Positions 5,073 through 30,603 are shown, counted from the stretch's first letter. The stretch: DNA of 33,102 bases from an uncultured Planctomycetia bacterium (GCA_964445715.1 CAYULJ010000002.1:1-33102), one strand, 5' to 3'. Made by a program: numbers and translations. Notes: generated from the letters alone by a model not told the origin.

Positions 5073-5113
5073 TTTAAGTTAACACTTTAACATTGTTAAA
5101 GTGTTAACTTAAG
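5073..5113. repeat. 41-bp palindrome, copy 2
   Basis: TTTAAGTTAACACTTTAACA-T-TGTTAAAGTGTTAACTTAAG; compensatory A-T at pair 9/33. Confidence 0.95.
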
Positions 5114-5120
5114 CATCATA

Positions 5121-5585
5121 TTATCTACCAAGAGATTCCCACAGCTTAAAGAAATGATCTTTTATAAGGATAAGTAACTTACCTGTATCGTCATTGTTAA
5201 AACCGAATTCTTTGAGTAATTTCTGGACCCTGTCTATATAAGTATTTATATAAGGATCTGGCTTGTTTCCATCTATTATTTCTGCGAGAAAAATCTCGTA
5301 TAGAGGCAATGACCTGTCAATGACCTCTTCTGCTTCCTTTGCTTCTAATCCTCCGCTTATCAATATCACGGCCATATTGAGAAAATACACCTCAATATCA
5401 TTTTCGAGCACTCCTGCTTTATCGCTGATCTTATCCAGCACTATCTTAGAAAAAGACTCTGCGATTTTCTTGGCTTCACCAGAAACATCTGCCTTGTTAA
5501 TCTCAATGCCAGGCGGTTGGATAGCCATTGCTGTCGCAGTAACAATCAAAACCAAACCAAAAGCTAAAACCATGATCTTCCTCAT
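5121..5585 (-). CDS. Hypothetical secreted protein
   Basis: Signal peptide (ATAMA), SD AAGGAG. Confidence 0.65.
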   Translation of the reverse strand: MRKIMVLAFGLVLIVTATAMAIQPPGIEINKADVSGEAKKIAESFSKIVLDKISDKAGVLENDIEVYFLNMAVILISGGLEAKEAEEVIDRSLPLYEIFLAEIIDGNKPDPYINTYIDRVQKLLKEFGFNNDDTGKLLILIKDHFFKLWESLGR

Positions 5586-5597
5586 ACATGCTCCTTT

Positions 5598-5789
5598 CTA
5601 TATTATTAAAAACAAAAAAGCCAAGAGCAGTAATGCAACAACAATCGCCAGCATGACTCTTGGCGTGGGATATTTAAATTTTCCCATAAAGCCCACGCTA
5701 CGCTTAAGGCTATCACCACAGTAAAGGCACAGCAAGGCCTCGTCATCATATATAGGCTTCCTGCAGTTAGGACAGATATATTCAGCCAT
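5598..5789 (-). CDS. Small zinc-ribbon membrane protein
   Basis: CPNC...CLYC plus C-terminal transmembrane helix. Confidence 0.65.
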   Translation of the reverse strand: MAEYICPNCRKPIYDDEALLCLYCGDSLKRSVGFMGKFKYPTPRVMLAIVVALLLLAFLFLII

Positions 5790-6066
5790 TGTTTTGCCTC
5801 ACATAAGCGCACTGCGTACGGCCCCACCAGGTCTTATGGAGCATATTTCGGATCGGAACGCAAAGCACAGGCTCGCCCTTGACAGTCTTTCGCAGGCCAA
5901 AGCGATTCTCGTAAATATCGCAGAGATACCTCCCATCAGCCCCTCTCTGCAGGTGCTCACATGGGTCGCCCTCTAAAACGCCGCAGCAGGCGCCACAACG
6001 CTTGCACTTAGCCTCATGCTCGTGAAGTTTCCTATCCTGGGTCTCATAATAGAACGCTTCGTCCAT
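5782..6066 (-). CDS. YkgJ-like CxxCxxCC cysteine-cluster protein
   Basis: CKRCGACC, C-x-HL and CDIYENR motifs. Confidence 0.7.
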   Translation of the reverse strand: MDEAFYYETQDRKLHEHEAKCKRCGACCGVLEGDPCEHLQRGADGRYLCDIYENRFGLRKTVKGEPVLCVPIRNMLHKTWWGRTQCAYVRQNNG

Positions 6067-6497
6067 TATCTTTTAATAAAATCAAAAAATATTGCCAGCG
6101 CCAATGCTAAAATAGATGAGGCAAATATAAAAAAATAATTTATCTTGTCTTTTTTTGAACTTAATTTACAAAGAATAGTGCCCAGGACCTCTCTATCGTG
6201 CTGAGAAAGATCTTTATTGTGAAGCAACTTATCTGTCAGTCCGGTCTTCTGCAGTTCTCTATGCAATACCTGATCGTATCTGAACTTATAAACAAAAAAT
6301 ATAAAAAAACCAATAACGCCTGTATACCATAATATCTTGGCAAACAAAGGATTTGCATCCAGGACAATATTCACCGCTCTTAAGGATACAACCGCTATAA
6401 GAGCTATAAAGAAAAAGATCCAGGAAGCTGCAGGATCTTTACAGCTCTTTAACTTAAAACAATCGTAGCAGACAAATTGTTTATTCTTCTTTGTCAT
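6066..6497 (-). CDS. Hypothetical membrane protein
   Basis: Three hydrophobic segments; ATG 6497 overlaps the rlmN stop (ATGA) and has a GGAGG SD. Confidence 0.65.
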   Translation of the reverse strand: MTKKNKQFVCYDCFKLKSCKDPAASWIFFFIALIAVVSLRAVNIVLDANPLFAKILWYTGVIGFFIFFVYKFRYDQVLHRELQKTGLTDKLLHNKDLSQHDREVLGTILCKLSSKKDKINYFFIFASSILALALAIFFDFIKR

Positions 6498-7525
6498 GGA
6501 CTTATCCTCCCAGCCAATTGACCGCATGCAGCATCTATATCGCTGCCTTTTGATTTTCGCAATGTAACACTTGCCTTTTTTCTTTTAAGAGCGCTCATAA
6601 ACAATTTTATTTTTTCTTCAGAAGGCGGCTCGTAACCAGTCTCTGCTACAGAGCTGCATCTTATAAGGTTCACCTTGGCATGCAACCTCCATGCTATCTC
6701 GCCAAGCTTCAAGGCGTCCTTTGTCGAATCATTTATGCCCTTTATCAATACATACTCTAGCGTTATTAGTCTTCCCATTTTTTCAATATACCTCTCGCAT
6801 GCCCTAAAAAGCTTCTCGAGCGGATAGCGCCTATTAACAGGCACCAGGATGTTTCTTAGAGGGTCATTCGCCGCGTGAAGTGATATCGAAAGATTCACCT
6901 GCAAGCCCAGTTCTTTCAGCTTGTCGATACCAGGTACTATGCCGCAGGTCGACACAGTGAACCTCCTAGAGCCTATACCAAGCCCTTCCTTTGAATTCAT
7001 GATCATTATGGACCTTGCCATGTTTACATAGCTATCCAATGGTTCGCCCATGCCCATAAAGACATAATTAGTCAGATCGTAGCGAAGATTGCTCTTTAAA
7101 AATAACACCTGGCCTGTTATCTCGGCAGGCCTGAGGTTTCTTGTAAAGCCGCGACTGCCGCTCGCACAAAAAGGACAGGCGAATTTACAGCCCACCTGCG
7201 TGGAAATACACACTGTCTTTCTTTTCCCGGCATATAAGACAACTGTCTCTATTAGATTATCGTCTTCTAGCTTAAAAACAAACTTCTCAGCGCCATCTCT
7301 TGACCTAAGCCTACCTTCCAGACCCAGGTCTCCCGAATAATAATTCTTACTCAATGTATCTATGAAACTAGCGGGCAAGTTTTTCATCCTTCCAAAATCA
7401 GAGACGCCCTTCCTGTAAAGCCACTCAAAAACCTGTTCTGCCCTGTAGCGCGGCTCGCCAAGATCCAAAAAATCATTTTCCAGTTCTTCTAAAGTGAAAT
7501 CTCTTATATCTGGGAAGGAAAGCAT
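6494..7525 (-). CDS. rlmN: 23S rRNA (adenine-2503-C2)/tRNA methyltransferase RlmN
   Basis: CISTQVGCKFACPFC radical-SAM motif, MGMGEP, ISLHA, EYVLIKGIND and DIDAACGQL; start 7525 or 7531. Confidence 0.93.
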   Translation of the reverse strand: MLSFPDIRDFTLEELENDFLDLGEPRYRAEQVFEWLYRKGVSDFGRMKNLPASFIDTLSKNYYSGDLGLEGRLRSRDGAEKFVFKLEDDNLIETVVLYAGKRKTVCISTQVGCKFACPFCASGSRGFTRNLRPAEITGQVLFLKSNLRYDLTNYVFMGMGEPLDSYVNMARSIMIMNSKEGLGIGSRRFTVSTCGIVPGIDKLKELGLQVNLSISLHAANDPLRNILVPVNRRYPLEKLFRACERYIEKMGRLITLEYVLIKGINDSTKDALKLGEIAWRLHAKVNLIRCSSVAETGYEPPSEEKIKLFMSALKRKKASVTLRKSKGSDIDAACGQLAGRISP

Positions 7526-7546
7526 GATCAATAGTATTAGCGGGAA

Positions 7547-7696
7547 CTAAGCTCTTTTTTTCTTTCTCTTTAAGGCCTTTTTCATCCTATCCTTTGCCTG
7601 CTCACTCGTCCTGCCTTCTGTCAGATGCCCGCAGCATATAGCTGCAAAGCCCTTGCGATTCTTCATCTTGAACACCTGCATCCTTGACTTAGACAT
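7547..7696 (-). CDS. Small basic hypothetical protein (49 aa), absent from the ORF track
   Basis: MSKSRMQVFKMKNRKGFAAICCGHLTEGRTSEQAKDRMKKALKRKKKRA*, SD AAGGAG, fills the gap exactly. Confidence 0.6.
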   Translation of the reverse strand: MSKSRMQVFKMKNRKGFAAICCGHLTEGRTSEQAKDRMKKALKRKKKRA

Positions 7697-8200: not shown

Positions 8201-8235
8201 GCCTTCCTCCTTCCGGCTCTTAGCCGTTCTTTTTA

Positions 8236-9143: not shown

Positions 9144-9184
9144 CTTAAGTTCACACTTTAACATTGTTGAAGTGTGAACTTAAG
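9144..9184. repeat. 41-bp palindrome, copy 3
   Basis: CTTAAGTTCACACTTTAACA-T-TGTTGAAGTGTGAACTTAAG; compensatory C-G at 9/33; symmetry extends to 9142..9186. Confidence 0.95.
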
Positions 9185-9920: not shown

Positions 9921-10010
9921 TCTACGGTAGCTGGTCGGCCTTGCCCGCCTTTGGTGGATTTAGGCACCTAGCTTTGCGCCTCATCTTTTCAGATGATTTG
10001 CCCTTTTACG
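9921..10010 (-). ncRNA. c-di-GMP-I (GEMM) riboswitch
   Basis: GGGCAAATCATCT-GAAA-AGATGAGGCGCAAAGCT...CCTAA...CAGCTACCG matches the class-I consensus; lies upstream of the PilZ gene. Confidence 0.9.
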
Positions 10011-10039
10011 GAGCATTTATCAATTTGTCTTCTACTATA

Positions 10040-10990: not shown

Positions 10991-11058
10991 TATGTCTTAG
11001 GACATATGTCCTATCTTTATATACACTAAAAGTATACCATATGTCCTATATATGTCAA
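10991..11058 (-). promoter_or_regulatory. Fic promoter with operator-like repeats
   Basis: TTGACA-16-TATACT (11031..11058); perfect palindrome TAGGACATATGTCCTA 10998..11013; TATGTC at 10991, 11005, 11040 and 11051. Confidence 0.65.
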
Positions 11059-11069
11059 CAAAAACTCCC

Positions 11070-11110
11070 CTTAAGTTCACATTTTAACATTGTTGGATTG
11101 TAAACTTAAG
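11070..11110. repeat. 41-bp palindrome, copy 4 (internally degenerate)
   Basis: CTTAAGTTCACATTTTAACA-T-TGTTGGATTGTAAACTTAAG; symmetry extends through ACTCCC/GGGAGT to 11064..11116. Confidence 0.9.
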
Positions 11111-11246
11111 GGGAGTGGCTATTTCTTGGCCTTGCTGATTTTCTCCTGCAAAAACCCTGGGAATAATCCTGTTGCGGCGGACTCTTGATAATACAATGTC
11201 TAAAGCGGGAGAAACCACATCATTATTAACTGAGATCTCTTATGTT

Positions 11247-11924
11247 TCATCTTAAGATCCTCAAAATATTTGTTGCCTCTTGAGGCATACTGCCTTTACC
11301 TCGAATTAAAATCTCATCTGCTGACAAGGCCTGGCCATAAAGAGTTGCGTTGCCGTCCTTATGCTCCTTAACAACAGCTCCTTCTAATTTGACTCCGGCA
11401 AACAAGCCCCTGCTCCTAGAGTAAGAGAGAATCCCACCTTTTAACTGTGCATCTGTTGATGCCTCAGCATTCCTGCCAACAGGACCTGCTGACACGCTAG
11501 CATCTGCACCAAACTTGAATTTGCCCTGCAAAATCCCGTCTACGCTACGCCTGTTCATTATAAGGAGGACTATGTCTATTGCCTGGCCGCCTATCTGCCA
11601 ACCAAAACTCCCGCCTGCCAGAGTGAAGATAGCTGGGCTTGACCAACCAGCTCCACTTTTATTGCGCACCATGATTATACCCTGGCCGTATTTACCGCCA
11701 ATGCCCAAGCCAACGGATACTGTGTTTGGAAAAATAGCAATAGCCTCGCATTTACGGATAAGATCTTCCGGGATATTTTGGTCAGGCATTTCCTGTATAT
11801 CACCAAGCACCTTGTCGCATTCCTCTACTAGATCGACCCATTTATTATCGCCAGCCATCACATGACCACTAAGCGCGAAACTCATTATAAATATCCCAAA
11901 AATCAAAACCTTGCAAATCTTCAT
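11247..11924 (-). CDS. Lipid-binding SYLF (Ysc84-like) domain protein
   Basis: GGSFGWQIGGQ, ASVSAGPVGR and YSRSRGLFAGV motifs; signal peptide. Confidence 0.9.
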   Translation of the reverse strand: MKICKVLIFGIFIMSFALSGHVMAGDNKWVDLVEECDKVLGDIQEMPDQNIPEDLIRKCEAIAIFPNTVSVGLGIGGKYGQGIIMVRNKSGAGWSSPAIFTLAGGSFGWQIGGQAIDIVLLIMNRRSVDGILQGKFKFGADASVSAGPVGRNAEASTDAQLKGGILSYSRSRGLFAGVKLEGAVVKEHKDGNATLYGQALSADEILIRGKGSMPQEATNILRILR

Positions 11925-11938
11925 ACCTGCTTGCCTCC

Positions 11939-12703
11939 TTATCTTTTAACTGCTGTCACAAGCATCCTAGATGTCAAAAAACCATAATCTCTCTTCTGCT
12001 TATGCAAAGACACCCCTTTTTTTACAGAAACTGTGTCAAAGCCGGCTCTTTTCAAAAGACGCGTGATCTCATCTTTGCCGTATATCCTTTCACAATAAAA
12101 ACCATCTCTTAAAAGACCCTTCTTTTTTGATAGGACTATTTCCCTTGCCTTTACGATATCGCCTTCGAGCTGTCTCTGTCTGCACACTAGCACGTCACCA
12201 TCTGCTTCGTGCCAGGAAATTGGCTTAAGATTGCTTCTTACATGATTTGAATCGACCATGTCCAACAACAATCTGCCTCCCTTTTTCAATAATCTATAAG
12301 TCTCTTTCAATATGCGCCTGTTTTCTTTTTCATCTGGAAAATAACCGAATGAATTCGCCATTATGAATATCGCAGAGTAGTCGCCCGCTCTTAACCCACT
12401 GAAACGCGCATCACGACGCACGAATCTCACCTTGCAACGCGCCTCTTTTGCCAATCTCCTGCCGAGTTTAATAAGATAATCTGAAAAATCCAATACCGTG
12501 AGGTCATGATAACCTCGCTTCGCCAATTCCAAAGAATGTCTTCCGTGACCACCGCAAAGGTCAAGGATCCTATCTTTCTTATGCAACTTCAGGATCTTTT
12601 CCAATAATTCTGTCTCTCTGCGCGTCAAATCATCATCGCAGACACTCCTGGAATCCGTGATCAGATATATCTCATTAAAGAACTTCTTCCACCAATCCCT
12701 CAT
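11939..12703 (-). CDS. Class I SAM-dependent methyltransferase
   Basis: ILDLCGGHGRHS, NSFGYF and LKKGGRLLLD motifs. Confidence 0.85.
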   Translation of the reverse strand: MRDWWKKFFNEIYLITDSRSVCDDDLTRRETELLEKILKLHKKDRILDLCGGHGRHSLELAKRGYHDLTVLDFSDYLIKLGRRLAKEARCKVRFVRRDARFSGLRAGDYSAIFIMANSFGYFPDEKENRRILKETYRLLKKGGRLLLDMVDSNHVRSNLKPISWHEADGDVLVCRQRQLEGDIVKAREIVLSKKKGLLRDGFYCERIYGKDEITRLLKRAGFDTVSVKKGVSLHKQKRDYGFLTSRMLVTAVKR

Positions 12704-12710
12704 ACCTCTC

Positions 12711-12751
12711 CTTAAGTTTACATTTCAACAATGTTAAAGTGTAAACTTAGG
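12711..12751. repeat. 41-bp palindrome, copy 5 (supplies the stop codon of 12747..14123)
   Basis: CTTAAGTTTACATTTCAACA-A-TGTTAAAGTGTAAACTTAGG. Confidence 0.93.
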
Positions 12752-14123
12752 CAAAGCCGAACAAGCCGTCAGAGGCTATTAGCGCAGGTCGACCCTTCCA
12801 CGAGGCTAACTTTGCAATATCTTCTTCTTCTTTGCTGATCTGGACATACTTACCAAGCTGGCCTTGTAGCCATAATTCCTCTAAAACCAATGCGTCTTTC
12901 CATAAGTTTTGAGCGTATTGTTTCAATTGCTCGACATGTACCTCAGTGATAATGCGCGGCCTTAGCGTGTTCATCAAAGGCCCTAGCAGGTACACATTAC
13001 CAATCTCTATGGATCTCTTGTCCATCTCCTGTTGTATTTTTAAGACAAAGTCAAAGCCTAAGCTTAAAATAGCGTCATTGACCCTCTTGACCGCCTCTTT
13101 TATAGGCATGTTCGAACGCAGTATTGCGCTACTCTGGACACCTCCACCAGAACCGACATTAGTAGGAATGCCGCCGAATCTCGTCACAAAGCCGATAAGC
13201 CCGACATCTGTCACAAAACAACGAAAATCAGTCTGCCAGCGCTTTATAAAAAGTCTTTTCTTATCTTTGCCTATCCACGGAAATTCCTCTGCCCATAAAT
13301 CCATAGGCACAAGCGGCTGCACAATATAATCTCCGGCCTTCAATGCGCGCTCAATACCTGCATCCCTATCAGGCTCTTTGTGTCCTATGATAATACCTTT
13401 TCCAGAATAGCCATGAACTGGTTTCAATATAATACCAGCCCAGTTATCCTTGGCCCATTTCACCAGGTCTGGAATATTTTCACCATCAGGCCCGATTGTA
13501 GCGCGCTTATAAAACTGCCTTGTCCATGGCGTCCTCTTGATAGTCGTATCTGACAATCTGTTTTTATACTCTGAAGTCACTATTTCAAAAATGCCTTTTG
13601 CACCAACAGGCTCCATGCCTCTTGGATTCGTAACCAGACCCTGCTTTATAGCCGCCAAGAGCCCATCAAGATTATGCGATTTTTTTAGTCTCACAATGAC
13701 ATTGTTGTTAAAATCCAAGAAAACAGCTGTTAACCTGTCCCCTCCAACGCAGACCTTATCGTCTTTCAGTTCTAGGCCAGTTGGATCAACTAAAACCGCC
13801 TTGACACCTGGAAGGCTATTGAGGTATTTGGTAAATCTTATATTCTCGCCTACTTTATCTAATGTTTCTTTTTCCGCTACAATAGCTATAAAAGGAGCTT
13901 TTTTGGGAAAATTCTTTCGATGCGCTCTAAGAAGAAGTTCTGCAAAATTCGGCACAGGGTTCAATATGGGATCATCGAAATCCAACTCAATATCTAATCC
14001 ACTCTTCTTCTTTATCTTTTCCCAAGCAACCCTGCCTATTTCCTGAGCCATCTTCTGGTAATCCCATCCTCCAGGACTACCCAAATTCCACTCAGAATGA
14101 TATCCTAAAAACTCTTTTGTCAT
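12747..14123 (-). CDS. Glutathionylspermidine-synthase/circularly permuted ATP-grasp-like ligase
   Basis: EWNLGSPGG, ILKPVHGYSGKGIIIG, YIVQ, TDFR and PTNVGSGGG motifs. Confidence 0.65.
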   Translation of the reverse strand: MTKEFLGYHSEWNLGSPGGWDYQKMAQEIGRVAWEKIKKKSGLDIELDFDDPILNPVPNFAELLLRAHRKNFPKKAPFIAIVAEKETLDKVGENIRFTKYLNSLPGVKAVLVDPTGLELKDDKVCVGGDRLTAVFLDFNNNVIVRLKKSHNLDGLLAAIKQGLVTNPRGMEPVGAKGIFEIVTSEYKNRLSDTTIKRTPWTRQFYKRATIGPDGENIPDLVKWAKDNWAGIILKPVHGYSGKGIIIGHKEPDRDAGIERALKAGDYIVQPLVPMDLWAEEFPWIGKDKKRLFIKRWQTDFRCFVTDVGLIGFVTRFGGIPTNVGSGGGVQSSAILRSNMPIKEAVKRVNDAILSLGFDFVLKIQQEMDKRSIEIGNVYLLGPLMNTLRPRIITEVHVEQLKQYAQNLWKDALVLEELWLQGQLGKYVQISKEEEDIAKLASWKGRPALIASDGLFGFA

Positions 14124-14133
14124 ATTTGCAAAC

Positions 14134-14174
14134 CCTAACTTTACATTTCAACAACGTTAAAGTGTAAAGTTAGG
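14134..14174. repeat. 41-bp palindrome, copy 6
   Basis: CCTAACTTTACATTTCAACA-A-CGTTAAAGTGTAAAGTTAGG; compensatory changes at pairs 2/40 and 6/36; abuts the stop at 14175. Confidence 0.92.
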
Positions 14175-15710
14175 CTAGTCTTGATTCTCTAATCTCTTTT
14201 TAATCAATCCAAACGGTGCTTCGCCGCCCTGCAAAAGCAAATCATGAAACCTCTTTAATCCCAATTTAGAAGAAAATTTCTGCCTTAATCTATCGATCTC
14301 GAATTTACCAATAGTATAACACAACTGATATCCTGGCGAAAGCGCGTAATGCCTAAACATAAACTTGGCTATCTTTGGCTCATAGCCTAGATCCATAAGA
14401 AGGCCCTCGGCCTCTTTAAACTTTAATCTATTGATCCTTATACCGACATCCAACATTGCCCGAACCGCCCTCCAGGCCTGACGTTTTAATCCTAATAACT
14501 TATGTACCGGGTCTTTTACATATCCTAATCTATCAATAAGCCTTTCGCTATAAGAGGCCCAGCCCTCGTAAAATAAAGGGGATTCTATCTGCTGCCTTAT
14601 GGGATTTTTCATGCTCCGCCTTATCGAATCCAATAAGTGATGGCCTGGATATGTCTCGTGCGCGCTTACAAATAAATATTCGTTGTGCACATTGCTAAAA
14701 TCAGCTGTTATGTAAAAATAAGCTGGTTCGCGCCTGTCCTCTGTAGCAGGAGAGCTATAAGACGCTGAAGCCCTTATAGGCCTCAGAAACTGTGGAGTAA
14801 ATTTCACGGCTATCTCCTGTGTACCAGGAATCGTAATGACGTCTTTTTCTTTGATAAATTCCTTTAATTTTTTTATCTCATCAGTATAAACAGCCAATAG
14901 CGCCTCAGGTGTCTTAGCAGTTATGCTGTATTTGGAAAGCACGGCTTTCCATCCCGCTCCGGTTCTTACTCCGCTGGCAACGTCTTTTAATTCTTCGAGT
15001 GTCTTACGATATTCTTCGTATGCTATTTCAAAGATCTCTTTGAGGCTCTTATCACAAGAAAAAGAATCTCTTAATATATCCTCTATAAGAACCCTGTCCT
15101 TAATTATGACTTCTTTTGAAGGCATTTTTATCAAAAATCTTCTAAACTCCTCCAATGCATCAATTGCTTTTTTGATCGACCTGGTCTCTGCGCTGGGAAA
15201 ACTAGCAGAAGCGAGGTATACTATTGAAGCGTCTGCCATCTCTCTGGCAACTTCAAGGTAAGCCGAAGGCACATTTTTTAAATTCCTCCTGCCCTCTTCC
15301 AGCAAGCGCGGTATTTGAGAAATCTTTTCATGGAACACATTGCCTGGTCGACAACTGCCCAAAAGAGAGGCCTTCAGGTAAATGCCAGGGTCTATCTGCC
15401 ATATCTTGACTTGATCGAACTCTCTTAAAAATGTCGATAAACTCTGCCTAAGGAGGGTAAAATCGATTTGCGCTTCGATATCTAAATCAGGAAGGTTTAT
15501 TTTCTCCAGAGCACTTCTAAGACTTTTAACGCGCGAAACATCATGTTTTATTTTATCTTCATCAAAACCGTCCAGGATATCTAGATATTCAATGGCCTTC
15601 TTTGCCCTAGGGAAAAAATAAAATTCGTCGCTCAAGCACATCACAGGATAACTCTTTGCCATATAATCAAAATAATCCTGCGCTATCTCTGCAACCCCGG
15701 ACTTCCCCAT
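14175..15710 (-). CDS. DUF885 family putative metallopeptidase
   Basis: HETYPGHH, YEGWASYSE, PGYQLCYTIG and LKRFHDLLL motifs. Confidence 0.88.
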   Translation of the reverse strand: MGKSGVAEIAQDYFDYMAKSYPVMCLSDEFYFFPRAKKAIEYLDILDGFDEDKIKHDVSRVKSLRSALEKINLPDLDIEAQIDFTLLRQSLSTFLREFDQVKIWQIDPGIYLKASLLGSCRPGNVFHEKISQIPRLLEEGRRNLKNVPSAYLEVAREMADASIVYLASASFPSAETRSIKKAIDALEEFRRFLIKMPSKEVIIKDRVLIEDILRDSFSCDKSLKEIFEIAYEEYRKTLEELKDVASGVRTGAGWKAVLSKYSITAKTPEALLAVYTDEIKKLKEFIKEKDVITIPGTQEIAVKFTPQFLRPIRASASYSSPATEDRREPAYFYITADFSNVHNEYLFVSAHETYPGHHLLDSIRRSMKNPIRQQIESPLFYEGWASYSERLIDRLGYVKDPVHKLLGLKRQAWRAVRAMLDVGIRINRLKFKEAEGLLMDLGYEPKIAKFMFRHYALSPGYQLCYTIGKFEIDRLRQKFSSKLGLKRFHDLLLQGGEAPFGLIKKRLENQD

Positions 15711-15721
15711 AACCCCTCATC

Positions 15722-15762
15722 TTTAAGTTTACACTTTAACATTGTTAAAGTGTAAACTTAAG
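15722..15762. repeat. 41-bp palindrome, copy 7
   Basis: TTTAAGTTTACACTTTAACA-T-TGTTAAAGTGTAAACTTAAG; ends just before the SD of the DUF885 gene. Confidence 0.95.
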
Positions 15763-15871
15763 CGCCTACGTTATACGGTTATATCGTCCAATGGATTTTA
15801 AAACTTGTGAGGTGATGATATTAAAAGGTAAGTACGTTCTCAATTTGCGTCTTTACTGCTTTTTTGCTCTC

Positions 15872-16393
15872 TTATTCCTGTTCTCTCTTATCGCTTGCTT
15901 TCTTCTTAACTGAGATCTTTCCAAGGTCTACGCCTTCAATGCCTTCCCTATATGTCAATGCCCTATTGTCATCGTATATCTTCAAGTCCCAATCCTGCAT
16001 TGCCATCTTGAATTCGTCTATCTCATCCTGCAGCTTTTCCATTCTCCTCCTAAGCCTGCTGACTTTTAAATCACTGATCTCGCCTTTAAGATCCGAAACT
16101 GCCCTATTGTATCCTGCTTTCCAATCCTTCAGGATCTCCTGCATTGACTCCAGCTGCGACAAGACCTTCCTCATCTCTATCTTGTTCTCATCTGTCGCGC
16201 TCGACAAGGCAATATCAATGTCCTTCACGCCTTCTTCCAGTTTCTTGAATTTATCCATGGCAAGCTGTGCTTGGCTATCTAAATATAGTGTCTTTTCCTT
16301 GTAATCATTGTATATAAAATACCCCATAACATATGTAGCGATCAACAAAGCAAACAAAACTACTATTGAAATTTTCAACATACCTTTTCCCAT
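15872..16393 (-). CDS. Membrane-anchored coiled-coil hypothetical protein
   Basis: N-terminal TM helix, heptad-rich body; promoter TTGACT-17-TAAAAT at 16429..16457. Confidence 0.7.
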   Translation of the reverse strand: MGKGMLKISIVVLFALLIATYVMGYFIYNDYKEKTLYLDSQAQLAMDKFKKLEEGVKDIDIALSSATDENKIEMRKVLSQLESMQEILKDWKAGYNRAVSDLKGEISDLKVSRLRRRMEKLQDEIDEFKMAMQDWDLKIYDDNRALTYREGIEGVDLGKISVKKKASDKREQE

Positions 16394-16465
16394 TATCCTT
16401 AACCTCTCATAACCAGTTATTAGTATTTATTTTACACCTTATTGTCTAAATAGTCAATAAAAGAG

Positions 16466-16525
16466 CTTAGGTTCGCATACCACTTCGTGGCACAGGCTTC
16501 CCCAATGTTAAAGTGTGAACTTAAG
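16466..16525. repeat. Palindrome copy 8, left arm interrupted by a 19-nt insert
   Basis: CTTAGGTTCGCA-[TACCACTTCGTGGCACAGG]-CTTCCCCA-A-TGTTAAAGTGTGAACTTAAG; the right arm is intact and coding. Confidence 0.8.
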
Positions 16526-17470
16526 ACGGAATATCAATAGCCATGCAGGGATGGTTATTATGGCGAGTAAATGCGAATAGACTATCATGCCGCTCAAAAA
16601 TCTATTGTCAGCATTCACGTATTGTCCTATCACGACAAGGCTTACAGCAGCAGGCATTGTCGCCTCTAAAAAAATAAAAAACTTCAAAGCGTACGGCAGC
16701 GGCAGACACCTAATTAAACCAAGCGCTATAATAGGCAAGATTATCAGCTTAGCGAACATGCAAGTCGCCAATGCGCCCCAGTTTTCGGATTTAAATCCGC
16801 GATATGCCGCAAGTTGCGCGCCAAGCACTATCAATGCTAAAGGAAAACTCGAATCGCCCAGCATGGCCAATGGGTCAAATACCAGATTATGGACACTGCC
16901 TTTGCCCATTAAAAAAACCCATACGATTGATAATATCGTAACTGTGACAGGCGGATTTAAAACAGCACTGAGCTTGAAATTTCCCTTGAGATTTCCTGAG
17001 AGAAACGCAGGGCCAAATGACCATATGAGTACATTAAAACCCATAAGAAAGAGAAATATGTAGACAAGGACCTTGTCGCAAAACGCCCCCGTGCAAACAA
17101 AAGCCACTAAAGTCATGGGCAAGTACCCTGAGTTCTGAAATGCGCAAGACATCATAAATTCCCGGCCTGACTTAAAACCCTTCAAAGGCCTTTGGAATAA
17201 ATATCCTACGCCCAGGCCTATAAAAGCCATGATCATTGAGCTAATAGGCAATATCCACCATTTCGGGAACACAAAAGGATCGAATGTAGATGTTATTTTG
17301 GTAAAGATCAAGGCAGGGAAGCACGCCCAGATCAATATGCTGCTAAGATCTCCTATAGAGTCTCTTTTTATAATCTTCTTCGCATAAAGCGCATAGCCTA
17401 TGGCGAGCAAAAAGAATATCTTCAATATGCCATATGCTATGGAATGAAAATTATAAAACCCTTCTGTCAC
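16508..17470 (-). CDS. AEC (auxin efflux carrier) family transporter
   Basis: FPALIF, FQNSGYLP, LNPP and EATMPAA motifs; about 10 TM helices. Confidence 0.88.
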   Translation of the reverse strand: MTEGFYNFHSIAYGILKIFFLLAIGYALYAKKIIKRDSIGDLSSILIWACFPALIFTKITSTFDPFVFPKWWILPISSMIMAFIGLGVGYLFQRPLKGFKSGREFMMSCAFQNSGYLPMTLVAFVCTGAFCDKVLVYIFLFLMGFNVLIWSFGPAFLSGNLKGNFKLSAVLNPPVTVTILSIVWVFLMGKGSVHNLVFDPLAMLGDSSFPLALIVLGAQLAAYRGFKSENWGALATCMFAKLIILPIIALGLIRCLPLPYALKFFIFLEATMPAAVSLVVIGQYVNADNRFLSGMIVYSHLLAIITIPAWLLIFRLKFTL

Positions 17471-17484
17471 TATGCACCTTACTT

Positions 17485-17525
17485 CTTAAGTTTACACTTT
17501 AACAATGTTGAAGTGTAAACTTAAA
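17485..17525. repeat. 41-bp palindrome, copy 9
   Basis: CTTAAGTTTACACTTTAACA-A-TGTTGAAGTGTAAACTTAAA. Confidence 0.95.
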
Positions 17526-17539
17526 CGAGAAGTTCTCTA

Positions 17540-18058
17540 TTATTGCTTCTTATAAAGGCCTATTAACTCGGCCCTGTCCAATATATGGCCTTCCATGGCC
17601 TTTTCCAGGTCCTTTTTTCTAGAATTTTCTTTCAGGTTAAGCTTTGTATCTAATGCATATATCTTAAAGAAATAACGATGCGTACCAGACGGTGGACAAG
17701 GACCTCCGTATTCAATCCTGCCAAAATTATTCATAACCTGTATTCCGGGAATACTATCTTCTTTGATCTCAGATACAACAGAAATGTTATACAAGACCCA
17801 ATGTACCCATGTTCCCATTGGCGCGTCTGGATCATCTACTATTAAAGCAAGCGCCTTTGCGCCTTCAGGAATACCTTCTATGATTAGCATCGGGTTCACA
17901 TCATCTCCTTGACATGTAAATTTTTTCGGAATATACCCATTATGCTCGAACTCGGGACTTGAAAGCTTCATAGCTGCGCCTCCTTTTTCTTCGCTTGCAA
18001 CAGATGAAACTGTAGTCATAAAAACAAACATCGATAATATAAAAATAACCTTCTTCAT
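17540..18058 (-). CDS. YbhB/YbcL (PEBP/RKIP) family protein
   Basis: DDPDAPMGTWVHW and YGGPCPPSGTHRYFF motifs; signal peptide. Confidence 0.92.
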   Translation of the reverse strand: MKKVIFILSMFVFMTTVSSVASEEKGGAAMKLSSPEFEHNGYIPKKFTCQGDDVNPMLIIEGIPEGAKALALIVDDPDAPMGTWVHWVLYNISVVSEIKEDSIPGIQVMNNFGRIEYGGPCPPSGTHRYFFKIYALDTKLNLKENSRKKDLEKAMEGHILDRAELIGLYKKQ

Positions 18059-20224: not shown

Positions 20225-20265
20225 CTTAAGTTCACATTTTAACATTGTTAAAATGTGAACTTAAG
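20225..20265. repeat. 41-bp palindrome, copy 10
   Basis: CTTAAGTTCACATTTTAACA-T-TGTTAAAATGTGAACTTAAG, perfect with two compensatory pairs (9/33, 13/29). Confidence 0.95.
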
Positions 20266-23116: not shown

Positions 23117-23231
23117 GCTTCAAAAAGACGTTCGTCCGCCCCAGCGAAGCGTCCATCGCTCCATTTTATTTTTTGCTCGCCTAAGTTTACACTTTAACAA
23201 TGTTAAAGTGTAAACTTAGGCACCCATGCCC
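23117..23231. repeat. Composite repeat: arm + palindrome copy 11 (23180..23220) + arm stub
   Basis: 23117..23179 closely matches the reverse complement of 28327..28389; core CCTAAG...CTTAGG is perfect; GCACCCATGCCC stub matches 28276..28286 reversed. Confidence 0.92.
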
Positions 23232-25201: not shown

Positions 25202-26263
25202 TTAAAACCTCCACGTCAGTCCGGTCTGTAAACTTACATCCGGGCTCGAAGCAGCACTTATATTTTCCGTGATACCAAAATGACAAGATATATCGCTCCT
25301 CTCCTTCCATGTATAATTAAATGCTATGCCAAAATCATGGCTATCATTATCTAAGGGATTAGTCTCGCTATGTGGATAAGGAGTGGTGTTTCCTGTGACC
25401 TGAGTCACTATAGAGAACCTTTTCGTAAAACAATATTCTAATGCCAGAAGATACGAATAGACATGCTCGCCTATGCCCAACTCATCAAAAACTTTAGGCT
25501 TTTCTATGGCAACAATATTAGCACCCCCGTAGAGAAAAAGCCTATCAAAAAAACCTTTATCCACCAAGACGCCAAAACCGTAATCAAATTCCCCGCTGCC
25601 GAGCATGTCATCTTCATTTGCTGTTGGAAATTTAACAGACGATCTTAAAGAAAAATTAGGCCAGAACCAGCCACTGTCTCGCAGCAATTGATATTTTGCA
25701 TTAAGCATGACATCGCCGATGCCTTCTACGGATTTATTCATGGAAATCACATTCCTATTATTATATATAAAAGAATAATCAAATTCGTTCGACCCCTGTC
25801 TTTCCCTTGATCGAGGCGTCCTGGCTCCGACCCCATCCTCAAAACCCTCTATAACATCATCTAAGTAACCGCTAGAAAAACTTGTATAGGGTACTTCTAA
25901 GCCTATTTCGAGATTATCGTAAAGCCCATACCTAAAATCAAGAGTCACAGTAGAGACTTCAAGATCTATGTCTATCTGGTAAAGTGATGAGGCAGGAGTA
26001 AAGGCGCTTACAGTGATATTCGAGACTGTGTAGTTTGCATTTGTCGTAAATTTGTTACGCTCTCTGACTGATGCCTTATCCGGGACCATCTGCAGATAGA
26101 TCAGGTGCAAAGGCATTTGATTTCTTATTCTCAAAGGGCCGCCATTATTATACTCACTTTCTTCATCCCAATCATCCGCAAACGCAAAACTATTAGTAAA
26201 AATAAAAAATGATACCGTGAGAAACGATAAAAACACCAAGATGCCAAAACTTTTTTTCTTCAT
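25202..26263 (-). CDS. DUF3187-like outer-membrane beta-barrel protein
   Basis: Signal peptide, GPLRIRNQMP, GYLDDVIEGF, KFPTA...GSG and C-terminal WRF. Confidence 0.7.
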   Translation of the reverse strand: MKKKSFGILVFLSFLTVSFFIFTNSFAFADDWDEESEYNNGGPLRIRNQMPLHLIYLQMVPDKASVRERNKFTTNANYTVSNITVSAFTPASSLYQIDIDLEVSTVTLDFRYGLYDNLEIGLEVPYTSFSSGYLDDVIEGFEDGVGARTPRSRERQGSNEFDYSFIYNNRNVISMNKSVEGIGDVMLNAKYQLLRDSGWFWPNFSLRSSVKFPTANEDDMLGSGEFDYGFGVLVDKGFFDRLFLYGGANIVAIEKPKVFDELGIGEHVYSYLLALEYCFTKRFSIVTQVTGNTTPYPHSETNPLDNDSHDFGIAFNYTWKERSDISCHFGITENISAASSPDVSLQTGLTWRF

Positions 26264-26299: not shown

Positions 26300-26440
26300 C
26301 TTAAGTTTACACTTTAACAATGTTAAAGTGTAAACTTAAGCACCGTGCCCGCAAAAAATAAAACGGAGCGAGGCCCACATTTTCAAAAAACTAACACTGG
26401 CCGAGCGTCTTTTTGAAGCTTGCTCTGGCTGTCGAAAACT
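26300..26440. repeat. Composite repeat: palindrome copy 12 (26300..26340) + chimeric arm
   Basis: Perfect core followed by CACCGTGCCCGCAAAAAATAAAACGGAGCGAGGCC...GCGTCTTTTTGAAGC, modules shared with 28227..28411. Confidence 0.9.
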
Positions 26441-26495: not shown

Positions 26496-26633
26496 AGCCG
26501 ATAAGGGCAAACCCTAGAGAAATCAGGGGGCGCAAAGCCAACAGACCTAAGTTACTAGTGATAAGCCGTAACTCATTGCAAATAAAAGAGTTAGTTAGGC
26601 AATCAATAGTAATATGGTGGCTGGGTTACCGAG
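26496..26633 (+). ncRNA. c-di-GMP-I riboswitch with a long stem extension, antisense to the GGDEF gene
   Basis: GGGCAAACCCTAGA-GAAA-TCAGGGGGCGCAAAGCC...GACCTAA-[~60-nt stem]-ATGGTGGCTGGGTTACCGA matches the class-I consensus. Confidence 0.85.
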
Positions 26634-26677: not shown

Positions 26678-28113
26678 ACCCTCTTATATATCTCGTTAAA
26701 CTCACTCTCAAGAACAAAAAACGGCGCAACATTACATCCAGTAAAATTCTTTATTTCGTTTATAGCCTCGATATCCTTGGGATTTAGCATAACAACGCTT
26801 ATCACGTTCTTTTCCTGATTAATCGGAATAATATTGCGCTCCTTGATAAGCCTTGCCGGTATATTCTTTGCGTAGCCCTCTAATTTTTCATCTTTATCTA
26901 AAGACCTTATATCATAATGCGGTATATTAAGTTGTGATTCCAATGCCCTCACTATATCTCCCGAAGAAGCATAACCAAGATCAATGATGCTTTGGCCTAT
27001 TCTCTGGCCTGTACTCCAATGTTTATCCAAAGCCATCTCGAGTTGATGAATATCTAAGATCTGGGACTCCAAAAGGATCTGCCCTAAAGGCCTATAGTTA
27101 AACTTTATCTCTGCTGTAAATTCTTTTCGGACAGATTTGCCAGGCGATTCTTCTATAGGGATAAATTCTTTTTTTACTTGCTTCCTCCGATTGACTAAAA
27201 AATTGCTACCAGGAAGAGTCTTCAAGTGACGCTTTATCTCTGTTATTATTTCCATTAGCTCAACGATGTTCTGTAATTTGAATTCGCTGTTGTTTGCTAT
27301 TGCTACCGAGACACTCATAAGCGGCATCTCTACTACGTTTCCCCTGCGATCCTTGGCTACAATATGACCCCTATCCCTGTCATCCGCGCTGTAATGAAAA
27401 GAGGTCAGTCTGCTAAAATCCAGTATTGATTCAGAGGCTATCAATCTCTCTCGCTTAGGCGTAGTGACTACGACAAAATCATCGCCGCCTATGTGTCCGA
27501 CAAAATCACTTTTATTTCCATGTTTCTTTACAGTATTTGATATGATATAAGCTGTGTGCCTTATTACGCTATCCCCTTTTCTGTATCCGTATTTATCGTT
27601 GAAACATTTAAAATTATCAATGTCATAATACGCCACTGAAAAGATCGCGCCTTCCTCGATCTTTGCCTGAATGATCTTTTCTATCTGGCGATTCCCGGGA
27701 AGCCTTGTCAGCGCGTTTGCGTGGAGCTGATGCGTTATGCGGCGCAATGCCATCTCCATCCTCACTTCTAGATCAATAGGGTCAGGCGGATTTACGATAT
27801 AATCATCCACGCCCTGCTCTAGCTCGAGCATCTTCTTTCTGATCCGCTTCTTGTCTATAAGGATTACTACGGGGATATGAGCGGTGAGAAAGTCTTCCTT
27901 GAGGGCTTTGGAAAGCTGCAACCCGTCCATTTCCGGCAGGTTAAAATCGACGATTATTATATCTGGCTGCTCGCGTCTTACTGTCCCAAGGACTGACAAC
28001 CCATCCGTTGCAGTGACGACTTCGTAATCCCATGCCTTCAACAGATACGTCAATATATCTACGATATTCTTGTCGTGCTCGGCTAATAATACCTTTCTAT
28101 TTCTCGTTGCCAT
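26650..28113 (-). CDS. Response regulator-GGDEF-MshEN fusion (putative diguanylate cyclase)
   Basis: REC (PDIIIVDFNLPEMDG), DIDNFKCFNDKYG, GHIGGDDF, then RPLGQILL...RIGQSIIDLG MshEN repeats. Confidence 0.88.
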   Translation of the reverse strand: MATRNRKVLLAEHDKNIVDILTYLLKAWDYEVVTATDGLSVLGTVRREQPDIIIVDFNLPEMDGLQLSKALKEDFLTAHIPVVILIDKKRIRKKMLELEQGVDDYIVNPPDPIDLEVRMEMALRRITHQLHANALTRLPGNRQIEKIIQAKIEEGAIFSVAYYDIDNFKCFNDKYGYRKGDSVIRHTAYIISNTVKKHGNKSDFVGHIGGDDFVVVTTPKRERLIASESILDFSRLTSFHYSADDRDRGHIVAKDRRGNVVEMPLMSVSVAIANNSEFKLQNIVELMEIITEIKRHLKTLPGSNFLVNRRKQVKKEFIPIEESPGKSVRKEFTAEIKFNYRPLGQILLESQILDIHQLEMALDKHWSTGQRIGQSIIDLGYASSGDIVRALESQLNIPHYDIRSLDKDEKLEGYAKNIPARLIKERNIIPINQEKNVISVVMLNPKDIEAINEIKNFTGCNVAPFFVLESEFNEIYKRVIKKADKGQ

Positions 28114-28119
28114 ATTATC

Positions 28120-28148
28120 ATTATAAATTAAAAAAAATCCACGGTCAA
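28120..28148 (-). promoter_or_regulatory. Sigma70 promoter directly before the ATG (leaderless-type)
   Basis: TTGACC-17-TATAAT with the ATG 6 nt after the -10 box; no SD. Confidence 0.65.
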
Positions 28149-28226
28149 CCAGAATAAGTAGTATTTGAAAAAATTATTACGCTTCTTAAGCCAAAAGAGG
28201 TTCTGCTTCTTCTTGTGGCTCTACAG

Positions 28227-28411
28227 TTGTCTTTCCAACCTGAGCAGTGCTTCAAAAAGCCTCTTTATTTTTTGCGGGCATGGTGCTTAAGTTTACACTT
28301 TAACAATGTTAAAGTGTAAACTTAAGCGAGCAAAAAATAAAACGGAGCGAAGGCCGCCTCGCTGGGGCGGACAAGCGTCTTTTTGAAGCACTGCTCAGGT
28401 TGGAAAGACAA
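28227..28411. mobile_element. 185-bp MITE/REPIN-like nested inverted-repeat element containing palindrome copy 13 (28286..28326)
   Basis: Perfect 33-bp terminal IR (28227..28259 / 28379..28411), inner 12-bp IR (28264..28275 / 28330..28341), central 41-bp palindrome; mobility is inferred. Confidence 0.7.
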
Positions 28412-28454
28412 AAGTATAGTTGCAAGGAAAGTATATTCTGCTATAATGGATGTT

Positions 28455-29153
28455 ATGAAACTTTCGATTTTGATTCCCGCGTACAATGAAGAGCGTTTTA
28501 TACAAGAGATAATGTCAGAAATAAAATCTCTCGATCTTTCGCGCCTGGGGATACCGGAAAAAGAGGTCATCCTTATAAACGACGGCTCTACTGATAGGAC
28601 AGTAGAAAAAGCCTCGAATGTCATTCCGAATATAAAAATCATACACCACATAAAAAACCAAGGCAAAGGCGCAGCGCTTACATCAGGCATCCCCCACGCC
28701 ACCGGCGACATAATAATAATACAGGACGCGGACCTGGAATACAGACCATCTTTATATCCCGAGCTTTTAAAACCGATTGTCGAAGGAGGAGCCGATATCG
28801 TATACGGGTCCAGATTCTTGGAGAAGCCTCATCCAGAAAACATGAGGATGTCGTATTTTCTAGCTAACCGCTTTGGGACGTTTTTAGTAAACATTCTGAA
28901 CAGTATACATCTTACTGACCCTATGACATGTTTTAAGGTCTTTAGAAAAAAGACATTGGAAGGCATAAAGCTTACCTGCAAAGGCTTTGGAACTGATGCG
29001 GAGCTTACTGCGAAAGTCACCAAGAAAGGTTTTAAGATAAAAGAAGTGGCTGTGCCTTACAAGGCAAGGACTTTCAAGGAAGGAAAAAAATTTCACCCTC
29101 TTTGTTCTCTTAATGTACTCTGGTCTATAATAAAGTACTCACTCCGAGGCTAA
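28455..29153 (+). CDS. Glycosyltransferase family 2 (DPM1-like)
   Basis: [33 protein letters not shown] and VYGSRF motifs; the track start at 28383 lies in the repeat. Confidence 0.92.
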
Positions 29154-29437
29154 CCGAATAATCCTTTGGCCTTTAACTTACCTGTTGTTTTTTTGTAATC
29201 ATCGAAATCAATAAATGTCAGATTAGGTCTTTTATTTTTTATTTTTGTTATTTCTCTGGTCCGGGAAGCAATGTATTTAAAAGGTGTTCCGCATTTCGGG
29301 CAACTAGTTGCTTTTGAATAATCTATGCCAAGCTCTCTGCACTTAGCGCAATCTCCCGTAGACTCACCTACTATAAGAAGATGAGCCATAACATCGTTTA
29401 TCTCAATCTTTGTCCATACGCGTATAAAATCAGACAT
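29150..29437 (-). CDS. Zinc-ribbon hypothetical protein
   Basis: CAKC...CPKC; the track's upstream extension runs through a terminator hairpin, so ATG 29437 is preferred. Confidence 0.65.
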
Positions 29438-29440
29438 ATC

Positions 29441-29494
29441 AAAAAATACCCCGTACCGCTTTTTTGCCATCAAAAAGCGGTACGGGGTAAAAAA
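29441..29494 (-). terminator. Intrinsic terminator after the csp gene
   Basis: TACCCCGTACCGCTTTTT / AAAAAGCGGTACGGGGTA inverted repeat with A/T tracts. Confidence 0.8.
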
Positions 29495-29508
29495 GGTTGC
29501 TATATAGT

Positions 29509-29709
29509 TTATAACAGCTTGACTACGTTAGCTGCTTGCTCCCCCTTTGGACCTTGGACTATATCGAATTCTACTTCTTCTCCTTCTGCCAAACTCTTAT
29601 AGCCTTCTCCCTGTATGGCTGTATGATGAACAAACACTTCCTTGCCGCTTTCAGGAACAATAAAGCCATAGCCTTTTTTGTTATCAAACCACTTAACTTT
29701 TCCTTTCAT
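29509..29709 (-). CDS. csp: Cold-shock domain protein
   Basis: GKVKWF, KGYGFI (RNP1) and VFVH (RNP2); promoter TTGACA-17-TATACT at 29776..29804. Confidence 0.95.
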
Positions 29710-29810
29710 AGCGCTTCTTTCTCCTCCTGCCGTTCACCTCACAAAACCCTTTCTGTAAGGTATAAATTAAAAATAAGTATAGTACCACGTCGACATTTTG
29801 TCAAATTTTT

Positions 29811-30524
29811 CTACTGCTCTGGCAATTCCTCAGTGGCCTTTTCTTCGTAATCGTGAAAAATGCTTCTCGCCTTTATATTATGGTCCTTCTCTATGGTCTT
29901 TAATCTCTCTTCTAATTCGTGCTGCATCTTGAGCATAATGCGCACAACATCTGCTATGGGGTCGGGTAAATTCCCGTGCTCAAAATCCAGCGTCAATTTT
30001 TCCATTGTCTTTTTTTCAACGACCTTGCCAGGCACGCCTACTACGGTCGCACCAGGCGGAACGTCTTTAATAACAACAGAACCAGAGCCTATCTTTGCGT
30101 TATCGCCTATATTTACAGGACCTAGGATGCAAGAATTAGAACCTACGACCACGTTTTTGCCCAGTGTCGGGTGTCGCTTTTCCTTTTCAAGACTTGTCCC
30201 GCCCAAGACCACTCCCTTATAAAGAAGCGTATTATCTCCTATCTCAGCGGTCTCGCCAATGACAATGCCCATTCCATGGTCTATAAAAACACTATGACCT
30301 ATCTTTGCTCCAGGATGTATCTCTATCCCAGTAAGAAACCTTGAGACATGAGAAATAATCCTTGCTACCATGTAAAGCCTCTTCAAATAGAAAAAATTAG
30401 CTATCCTGTGAAGCCATAAGGCATGAAGCCCTGGATAGCATAATATTATTTCTAAGGTGTTTTTTGCCGCAGGATCTTTCTCTTTGGCAGATTTTATATC
30501 CTCTTTCATCCTATCTATAAACAT
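29811..30524 (-). CDS. cysE: Serine O-acetyltransferase
   Basis: [26 protein letters not shown] and KRHPT hexapeptide-repeat motifs. Confidence 0.95.
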
Positions 30525-30562
30525 GCAAGCCCTCCCTTTATAGATTTAGCTAAAAATAACCA

Positions 30563-30603
30563 CCTAAGTTTACACTTTAACAATGTTAAAGTGTAAACTT
30601 AGG
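30563..30603. repeat. 41-bp palindrome, copy 14
   Basis: CCTAAGTTTACACTTTAACA-A-TGTTAAAGTGTAAACTTAGG, perfect. Confidence 0.95.

Follow-up and report, generated by a model that had tools for sequence, protein, structure and literature searches.

The window analysed here is a stretch of 33,102 nucleotides (positions 1-33102 of contig C2 of genome G000), taken from a 1.59-Mb Omnitrophota genome of 153 contigs with a G+C content of 42%. Its long open reading frames (ORFs) all lie on the minus strand except one, and the short gaps between them are occupied by copies of a 41-nt palindrome that is the subject of this work. The window contains 13 full copies and one 60-nt variant, and the consensus palindrome is identical to the copy at 26300-26340. 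Stem pairs are numbered from 1/41 to 20/22, position 21 being the centre, and are written with a hyphen when Watson-Crick paired and with a dot otherwise. The copies, none of which is assigned to a strand, are as follows.

3361-3401, no strand: 41-nt palindrome in the consensus form with centre T, outside the range covered by the initial annotation of this DNA
5073-5113, no strand: palindrome copy with 9/33 A-T (two-sided) and 1/41 T.G
9144-9184, no strand: palindrome copy with 9/33 C-G (two-sided) and 16/26 T.G
11070-11110, no strand: the most degraded palindrome copy, with 9/33 C.A, 13/29 T.T, 15/27 T.G and 16/26 T.G
12711-12751, no strand: asymmetric palindrome copy with 13/29 T.G, 16/26 C.A and 2/40 T.G
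14134-14174, no strand: minority-subtype copy with 2/40 C-G, 6/36 C-G, 13/29 T.G, 16/26 C.A and 20/22 A.C
15722-15762, no strand: palindrome copy whose sole change is 1/41 T.G; in the sister genome G001 the syntenic place is without a copy
16466-16525, no strand: 60-nt variant that keeps the 12-bp outer stem and has an insert of about 19 nt in one arm with a CCAC-TTCG-GTGG hairpin
17485-17525, no strand: palindrome copy with 16/26 T.G and 1/41 C.A
20225-20265, no strand: palindrome copy with two two-sided changes, 9/33 C-G and 13/29 T-A
23180-23220, no strand: palindrome copy with 2/40 C-G
26300-26340, no strand: consensus palindrome copy with centre A; folded as single-stranded DNA it gives -16.4 kcal/mol (z -7.7)
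28286-28326, no strand: consensus palindrome copy with centre A, in the single divergent gene gap of the window
30563-30603, no strand: palindrome copy with 2/40 C-G

The 13 copies carry eight two-sided Watson-Crick changes and 14 one-sided changes. The initial annotation had proposed that compensatory substitutions keep the palindrome symmetric, and a scripted check bore out the individual changes that it listed: 9/33 is A-T at 5073 and C-G at 9144 and 20225, 13/29 is T-A at 20225, 2/40 is C-G at 14134, 23180 and 30563, and 6/36 is inverted to C-G at 14134. One-sided changes are found on either strand as it had stated, with plus-strand G.T at 16/26 in copies 9144 and 17485 and A.C in copies 12711 and 14134. 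Copy 3361, the one-sided C.A at 9/33 in copy 11070 and the 60-nt variant at 16466-16525 had gone unreported. The inner arm next to the insert is altered as well in this variant, of which G000 has 26 copies (15 in gene direction, 8 in the opposite direction and 3 mixed).

A whole-genome scan in which a full copy had to match at least 31 of 40 consensus positions, the centre base being ignored, yielded 384 copies in G000. These match at 31-40 positions and split cleanly from weaker matches; a further 57 places match at 24-29 positions and can be put down to half copies or variants, to shifted matches of true copies or to chance. Genome-wide, paired double changes are commoner than independent mutation of the two arms would give, with 200 two-sided Watson-Crick cells observed in the 384 copies against 72.5 expected. 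Pair 9/33 is T-A in 304 copies, C-G in 71, A-T in 4, G-C in one and otherwise in 4 (Fisher p 4e-78), and pair 6/36 is G-C in 336 and C-G in 39, with 9 others (Fisher p 6e-47). The same test gave p 4e-12 for 8/34 (T-A 373, A-T 7, one-sided 4), p 4e-10 for 12/30 (A-T 369, G-C 7) and p 4e-12 for 13/29 (C-G 321, T-A 20, C.A 19, T.G 18). When the partner column was slid by 1-3 positions, two-sided cells dropped to 2-32 compared to 181 in register. Since the copies are not independent, sub-lineages having been copied, we counted compensated kinds as well as cells and found 16 fully compensated alternative pair types at 12 of the 20 pairs. The frequent types span many backgrounds, the 71 copies with C-G at 9/33 being spread over 46 of them and C-G at 6/36 over 33. 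We thus confirm that the compensatory base changes are real and far beyond chance. Pairing is continuous from 1/41 to 19/23, forming one hairpin, and ends sharply at 1/41, beyond which the adjacent flank positions are paired no better than in shuffled columns.

The family is also present in the congeneric genome G001, from which a sample of 456 kb with 190 copies was examined. Pair 6/36 is here C-G in 126 copies, G-C in 30, C.C in 17 and G.G in 17, and pair 8/34 is T-A in 162 and A-T in 19. An alignment of 16 palindromes that bracket transposase genes in 11 genomes (described below) has 93.9% of its cells paired, compared to 71.8% in shuffles, and two-sided changes at 16 of the 20 pairs, which none of 500 shuffles reached; three pairs near the foot are invariant in all 16 sequences. 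Pairing rather than sequence is therefore supported as the conserved property over most of the stem, in G000, in G001 and across the 11 genomes. To this extent the suggestion that symmetry matters more than sequence holds, but symmetry is not absolute, as pair 16/26 shows. The initial annotation had also argued against an adapter artefact, and indeed the same family is found in a congeneric genome and contigs of sequencing runs from four studies contain the stretch.

Pair 16/26 in G000 is T-A in 156 copies, C.A in 102, T.G in 101 and C-G in 25, and double changes at this pair fall below expectation (25 versus 41.7). It is tied to the centre base, C16 occurring with A21 in 108 of 127 copies. 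As C.A on one strand is T.G on the other, these copies represent one asymmetric form of the element in both orientations. The commonest form in G001 has three pairs unpaired or in wobble: 13/29 (T.G 72, C.A 54; 130 of 190 non-Watson-Crick), 16/26 (C.A 92, T.G 79; 171 of 190) and 20/22 (A.C 73, G.T 61; 134 of 190).

A candidate partner of the palindrome was found among the three G000 proteins that match Pfam Y1_Tnp. Its single-copy gene (C5:25560-26351, 263 aa) has a palindrome on each side, at 25499 and 26334, and its final codons extend into the downstream copy; the Y1 paralogues on C22 and C97 are not bracketed by the 41-nt family. Bracketing in G000 could be due to chance, and the link with the transposase thus rests on other genomes. 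Close orthologues (56-74% identity) are present in G001, G010, G011 and G019 and a partial one in G028, while the Y1 matches of other relatives are at most 45% identical, most of them about 30%. In each of the four genomes with a close orthologue the gene is bracketed by a palindrome of its own sequence but the same build and adjoins the same ORF of 352-372 aa, which from its sequence read by eye may be threonine synthase. Twenty-one loci were found when 185,579 species genomes were scanned; they are labelled Candidatus Omnitrophota together with a few metagenome-assembled genomes of Desulfobacterota type, and related repeats lie on both sides in 15 of the 21. Across genomes the repeat co-varies with the transposase, the palindrome at each orthologue differing in sequence but not in architecture. 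The exact family has 381 pattern matches in G000, 551 in G001 and none in the 29 other relatives, whereas 14 of 31 genomes contain a looser pattern of the shared build, with 0-1 matches for the reversed control. In several of the orthologous loci (L025-L038) the interval from the upstream palindrome to the start of the gene also contains a shared short motif rich in A, TTGAAAGAAAAT, which is possibly the promoter or operator of the transposase gene itself.

The C5 protein scores 35.6 bits against Pfam Y1_Tnp (cut-off 23), and among the NCBIfam models it matches REP_Tyr_transpos best, at E 1.3e-17 and over positions 6-146 of the 146 in the profile. Two histidines of an HxH motif (H76 and H78) and a tyrosine (Y135) are invariant in 19 aligned sequences, and by analogy with the family the tyrosine would be catalytic. 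The last 30 residues give a weak helix-turn-helix (HTH) match, to HTH_23 with 23.4 bits (cut-off 24.6; E 5e-5) and to HTH_28 with 18.6 bits. An AlphaFold model built on the 19-sequence alignment reached a pLDDT of 84.8, where an alignment of five sequences had given an unusable model (pLDDT 50.5). The closest fold to the model is 4ER8_A, the Escherichia coli REP-associated tyrosine transposase (RAYT) bound to a hairpin of the repetitive extragenic palindrome (REP), with E 7.9e-6 and a TM of 0.69 on the target; the next matches are the IS200, IS608 and ISDra2 transposases at E about 6e-4. A sequence search of PDB chains with the protein and with a five-sequence profile found no Y1 match, only weak HTH-like ones (E at least 0.004).

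The window is syntenic with contig C2 of G001 at ~80-87% identity, with housekeeping genes as flanking genes, and for 10 of the 14 sites in the window G001 has a copy at the corresponding place, some of them with flanks that align right up to the element. More generally, 92 of 143 flank-mapped G001 copies (64%) have a G000 copy at the same place, whereas background occupancy is 357 of 1208 gaps (sharing excess p 9e-18). Orientation was compared at 85 of the 92 shared sites, those at which the G000 copy matches at least 31 of 40 consensus positions. The centre base is the same at 44 and flipped at 41 of these, the 16/26 marker agrees at 24 and is flipped at 19, and 6/36 is C-G in G001 versus G-C in G000 at 54. 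In each species, what occupies a shared site is drawn at random from the pool of that species. Since orientation and subtype at the same site are unrelated, copies have been replaced, flipped or re-inserted since the species split, and the sharing of sites with random orientation points to turnover at preferred sites. Within the window, the G001 counterpart of copy 12711 is inverted, and copy 14134 belongs to a subtype that is a minority in G000 and the majority in G001. At site 5073 G001 keeps only a 12-nt half remnant, which shows that loss of copies occurs; in the comparison of filled and empty sites between the two genomes, sites other than 5073 were too diverged or rearranged to provide a clean empty site.

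Taken together, the covariation, a transposase gene bracketed by the repeat in many genomes, the predicted fold close to that of 4ER8, copies that turn over between sister species and asymmetric forms that are copied faithfully make it likely in our view that the 41-nt palindrome is a small REP-type non-coding hairpin. A dedicated single-copy HUH/Y1 transposase, of the RAYT (TnpA-REP) kind, would copy and replace this hairpin between genes. The initial annotation had not recognised such an element and its RAYT-like transposase. Known RAYTs are described as binding and cutting their repeat as a folded single strand (PMC8266576). The same source reports for a perfect-palindrome REP that a mid-stem mismatch “affected or almost eliminated cleavage”, whereas the effect was mild when stem bases were replaced in blocks by their complements, and that loop bases and stem irregularities set which REP strand is bound. 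By analogy, the C5 enzyme would bind the repeat as a folded single-stranded DNA hairpin, and only copies whose stem still pairs would be processed and copied. One-arm mutants would then be dead ends and compensated variants could found new sub-lineages, a filter that would yield covariation within a genome, a constant foot motif and a tolerated marker mismatch. The constant positions next to the foot (AAGTT.ACA) are probably a protein recognition sequence, leaving the inner stem free to covary, and 16/26 together with the centre base constitutes a tolerated irregularity that gives the element its orientation. We infer from this analogy that the transposase is catalytic and binds the hairpin, and that its requirement, rather than a host function, selects for pairing.

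Several observations speak against such a RAYT system. About 30% of gaps are occupied, so that by our own estimate bracketing of the gene in G000 alone would arise by chance about 1 time in 10, and 6 of the 21 public loci are without bracketing repeats, although these are mostly distant, truncated or at contig ends. The C5 protein falls under the curated cut-off of NCBIfam NF047646 (64 versus 80 bits). The 41-nt consensus has no GTAG or CGTC head and the flank positions are unconserved. Pairing of the stem is not strictly required either, as 16/26 is mismatched or in wobble in 203 of the 384 G000 copies, and the 34 of 190 G001 copies with C.C or G.G at 6/36 evidently persist. Finally, we saw neither activity nor an excision product nor expression; the public contigs that cover the window break at every copy and revealed nothing.

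A different explanation of the covariation would be mutational, intrastrand template switching or hairpin-directed repair keeping the palindromes symmetric without selection. The initial annotation had offered the copying of one arm onto the other by template switching as one possible cause, and the scarcity of intermediates is what such a process would leave: at 9/33 only 4 of 384 copies are non-Watson-Crick beside 76 two-sided changes, at 8/34 there are 7 A-T copies versus 4 one-sided ones, and rare private double changes (10/32 G-C, 11/31 T-A and 4/38 G-C) occur in one copy each. An efficient process of this kind should however erase asymmetry, and the C.A/T.G form at 16/26 persists in more than half of the G000 copies, is linked to the centre base and comes with fewer double changes than expected, while in G001 the three non-Watson-Crick pairs and the C.C or G.G copies at 6/36 persist as well. 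Mismatches copied faithfully in hundreds of elements are hard to reconcile with arm-onto-arm copying, and the stable asymmetric forms of both genomes leave template switching unsupported as the main cause; whole strands are copied together with their mismatches, not one arm onto the other. We regard symmetrisation by mutation as quite improbable. The palindrome could also be a double-stranded site at which identical subunits of a dimeric protein, through the HTH tail of the transposase or as a nucleoid protein, read matching half-sites. The foot motif invariant across genomes and the weak C-terminal HTH_23 match, albeit below cut-off, would suit such a site, and between species a co-evolving dimer would mimic covariation. 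Within one genome that has one protein, though, 9/33 is T-A, C-G, A-T or G-C with one-sided changes almost absent, where a tolerant protein predicts independent arms and a strict protein predicts no variation, which makes a dimer site highly improbable.

The position of the copies relative to genes brings in a third explanation, in which the host selects for a hairpin in the transcript that serves, at the ends of genes, to terminate or attenuate transcription, to stop 3' exonucleases or to provide a site for RNase III, and the transposase would only spread the palindromes or be unrelated. Gene calling in G000, by a simple script based on ORFs and codon scores, gave 1361 genes (91% coding). None of the 384 copies lies inside a called gene; 357 are in gene gaps (331 same-strand, 16 convergent and 10 divergent) and 27 at contig ends. 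The palindrome carries TAA in all three frames on both strands, and for the 331 copies between same-strand genes, which were oriented by those genes for all tests of the transcription strand, the stop codon of the upstream gene is inside the palindrome in 152, of which 121 use the TAA at positions 3-5, and 0-15 nt upstream of it in 108 more. In the window, the gene at 12747-14123 takes its stop codon from the TAA at positions 3-5 of copy 12711, read on the minus strand. The repeat thereby supplies the stop codon to many upstream genes and extends or shortens their predicted C-termini, which is of relevance to annotation. This intergenic placement directly behind upstream genes is what a transcript hairpin would show, and so is the sense-strand wobble at 16/26 (T.G 112 versus C.A 65, p 5e-4), a modest bias at the sole biased pair that may reflect a weak transcript-level effect. 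With 16/26 excluded, one-sided changes on the sense strand are G.T in 81 cases and A.C in 70 (p 0.42), so that apart from this pair no bias with respect to the transcription strand is seen. An RNA constraint should disfavour A.C on the transcript, yet A.C is not avoided, and DNA pairing is thus the better reading; of the two alternatives left side by side in the initial annotation, the DNA hairpin fits better and double-stranded RNA is less favoured. The centre base on the sense strand is T in 178 copies and A in 153, and at Rfam gathering thresholds no family matches the palindrome copies. Copies also occupy 10 of 28 divergent gaps, where transcripts do not end, and same-site sister copies differ in orientation and subtype, unlike in-place selection on a fixed hairpin. 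An intrinsic (Rho-independent) terminator was rejected on the basis of the A+T-rich stem (consensus G+C 24%) and the lack of a U-tract within 25 nt downstream, the T fraction on the sense strand being 0.10-0.32 at each position from +1 to +25. No RNA run is listed among the public sequencing runs that contain the stretch. We therefore consider host selection of an RNA hairpin unlikely, and note that the palindromes may have a side-effect on the host that is compatible with REP-type elements moved by a RAYT.

Other classes of element were set aside. Target-site duplications were not found, identical flanks of 2, 3 and 4 nt being present in 16, 5 and 1 of the 384 copies, and a TTAA or TAA target duplication was rejected because 2/40 varies as a stem pair (C with G) and not as a direct repeat. 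The palindrome does not qualify as a miniature inverted-repeat transposable element of a DDE transposon, as no target-site duplication flanks inverted repeats. Integron attC sites and CRISPR arrays were dismissed at first look given the syntenic housekeeping genes on the flanks and the spacing of 1.4-4 kb. The repeat also fragments short-read assemblies of the lineage: 27 of the 384 copies sit at the edge of a contig, and in public contigs there is a break at every copy. In four runs, the Logan contigs that cover window positions 11000-18000 break at each palindrome, with joints that link different copies and look like repeat-induced joins, and no polymorphism inside a copy was readable from them.

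A second, rarer palindrome family is present in G000 at ~14 loci (on contigs C5, C8, C10, C27, C32, C42, C53, C60, C66, C72 and others). It is roughly 52 nt long, centred on CTTAAG or TTTAAA, and has a GTAG-headed G-rich stem that varies by paired changes and outer tails TTATCCACA, which we take to be a DnaA-box consensus. It does not flank the other two Y1 genes of G000. Co-orientation of genes in this genome is extreme, with 1150 same-strand gaps versus 58 strand switches by our own gene calls, and GC skew across the window is strong and constant at about -0.2. The only Rfam matches at gathering thresholds are two cyclic di-GMP-I riboswitch aptamers, at 9923-10012 on the minus strand (71.6 bits) and at 26496-26633 on the plus strand (58.9 bits), the called genes around the latter being on the minus strand. 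A direct repeat occurs in three copies (1079-1112, 2523-2556 and 16427-16460) and, read by eye on the minus strand, resembles a TTGACT / 17 nt / TAAAAT promoter upstream of genes. A 63-nt module at 23117-23179 and 28327-28389, with a partial copy at 26351-26371, abuts three palindrome copies; the two full modules are 90% alike and inverted relative to each other, and elsewhere in G000 the module recurs only in part, once on C57 and as a fragment of 19 nt on C81. Palindrome copy 28286 lies within an inverted repeat of 54 nt (28212-28265 / 28373-28426).

From a comparative point of view the system resembles the REP/RAYT pairs, or “REPtrons”, above all those whose palindromes are short and perfect, described in Stenotrophomonas maltophilia and Marinomonas (PMC8266576), and that of E. 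coli (PDB 4ER8). It too consists of a high-copy extragenic palindrome and a single-copy HUH/Y1 gene that is bracketed by the repeat and with which the repeat sequence co-varies, and the predicted fold of the protein is closest to 4ER8. As described for RAYTs, which keep a fixed place (bioRxiv 10.1101/2021.07.10.451892), the gene occupies one chromosomal place in four relatives, and as with the GTAG REPs reported in PMC3733652 the ends of the repeat give stop codons to neighbouring genes. The differences are equally clear. A GTAG or CGTC head defines the two REP super-families described in that report, and the palindrome studied here has neither. Its stem of 19-20 bp with a 1-3-nt loop is almost perfect, compared to 8 bp in the S. 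maltophilia example given in PMC8266576, and unlike a typical RAYT the protein has a tail of ~100-150 aa with the weak HTH match and lies under the NCBIfam equivalog cut-off. The density is very high, with one copy per 4.1 kb and ~30% of gene gaps occupied. REPINs, as characterised in Pseudomonas fluorescens SBW25 (PMC3116915), likewise have a hairpin as the replicated unit and variant populations within a genome. According to that account compensatory changes are common in REPIN hairpins, and compensatory change in such hairpins is thus already published. A REPIN is described there as two separate inverted small palindromes with a variable spacer, ~100 bp in all, whereas the present element is one continuous 41-nt hairpin whose arms, by inspection, are not self-complementary except for the CTTAAG end; it is not a REPIN.

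TIRYT or subclass 2.1 TnpA-Y1 proteins (PMC3733652; PMC6006769) also combine a Y1 domain with a C-terminal extension resembling HTH_23 or HTH_28. By the description in PMC6006769 subclass 2.1 genes have no REP-like sequences nearby, and TIRYT flanks are said to share a GGGGWSAS motif; compared by these features, our gene differs in being bracketed by a hyper-abundant palindrome without GGGGWSAS. The transposases of the IS200/IS605 family (IS608, ISDra2) have the same HUH/Y1 fold, recognise sub-terminal single-stranded DNA hairpins and make no target duplication, none being seen at the palindromes here either, but they move their own gene in multiple copies, whereas the gene of the present system exists once, at a conserved place, and nothing but the 41-nt hairpin has been multiplied. 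Judged by title and abstract opening, none of the papers listed on Omnitrophota and palindromes concerns this repeat family. We regard the element as a new family within a known kind, REP/RAYT, and it adds the Omnitrophota of marine metagenomes to REP biology, with a hairpin repeat in about a third of the gene gaps of a 1.6-Mb genome. With 384 copies in G000 and a sample of 190 from G001, it also provides a very clean case, in a DNA element, of base-pair covariation within a genome, and it keeps apart three ideas that are commonly run together: pairing is conserved; symmetry in itself is not, one stably mismatched pair marking the orientation; and the strand of transcription hardly matters. 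We speculate, tentatively, that the HTH-tailed Y1 enzyme, whose type is reported to lack a REP partner, might preferentially re-target gaps that are already occupied, replacing or flipping the copies there. If our hypothesis were correct, it would explain why 64% of sites are shared with orientation and subtype random per species, and the compensatory pattern would be kept by continual re-seeding from a few competent source copies and not by point mutation at each locus. The system would then represent a distinct branch of REP/RAYT, set apart by untagged and nearly perfect 20-bp hairpins.

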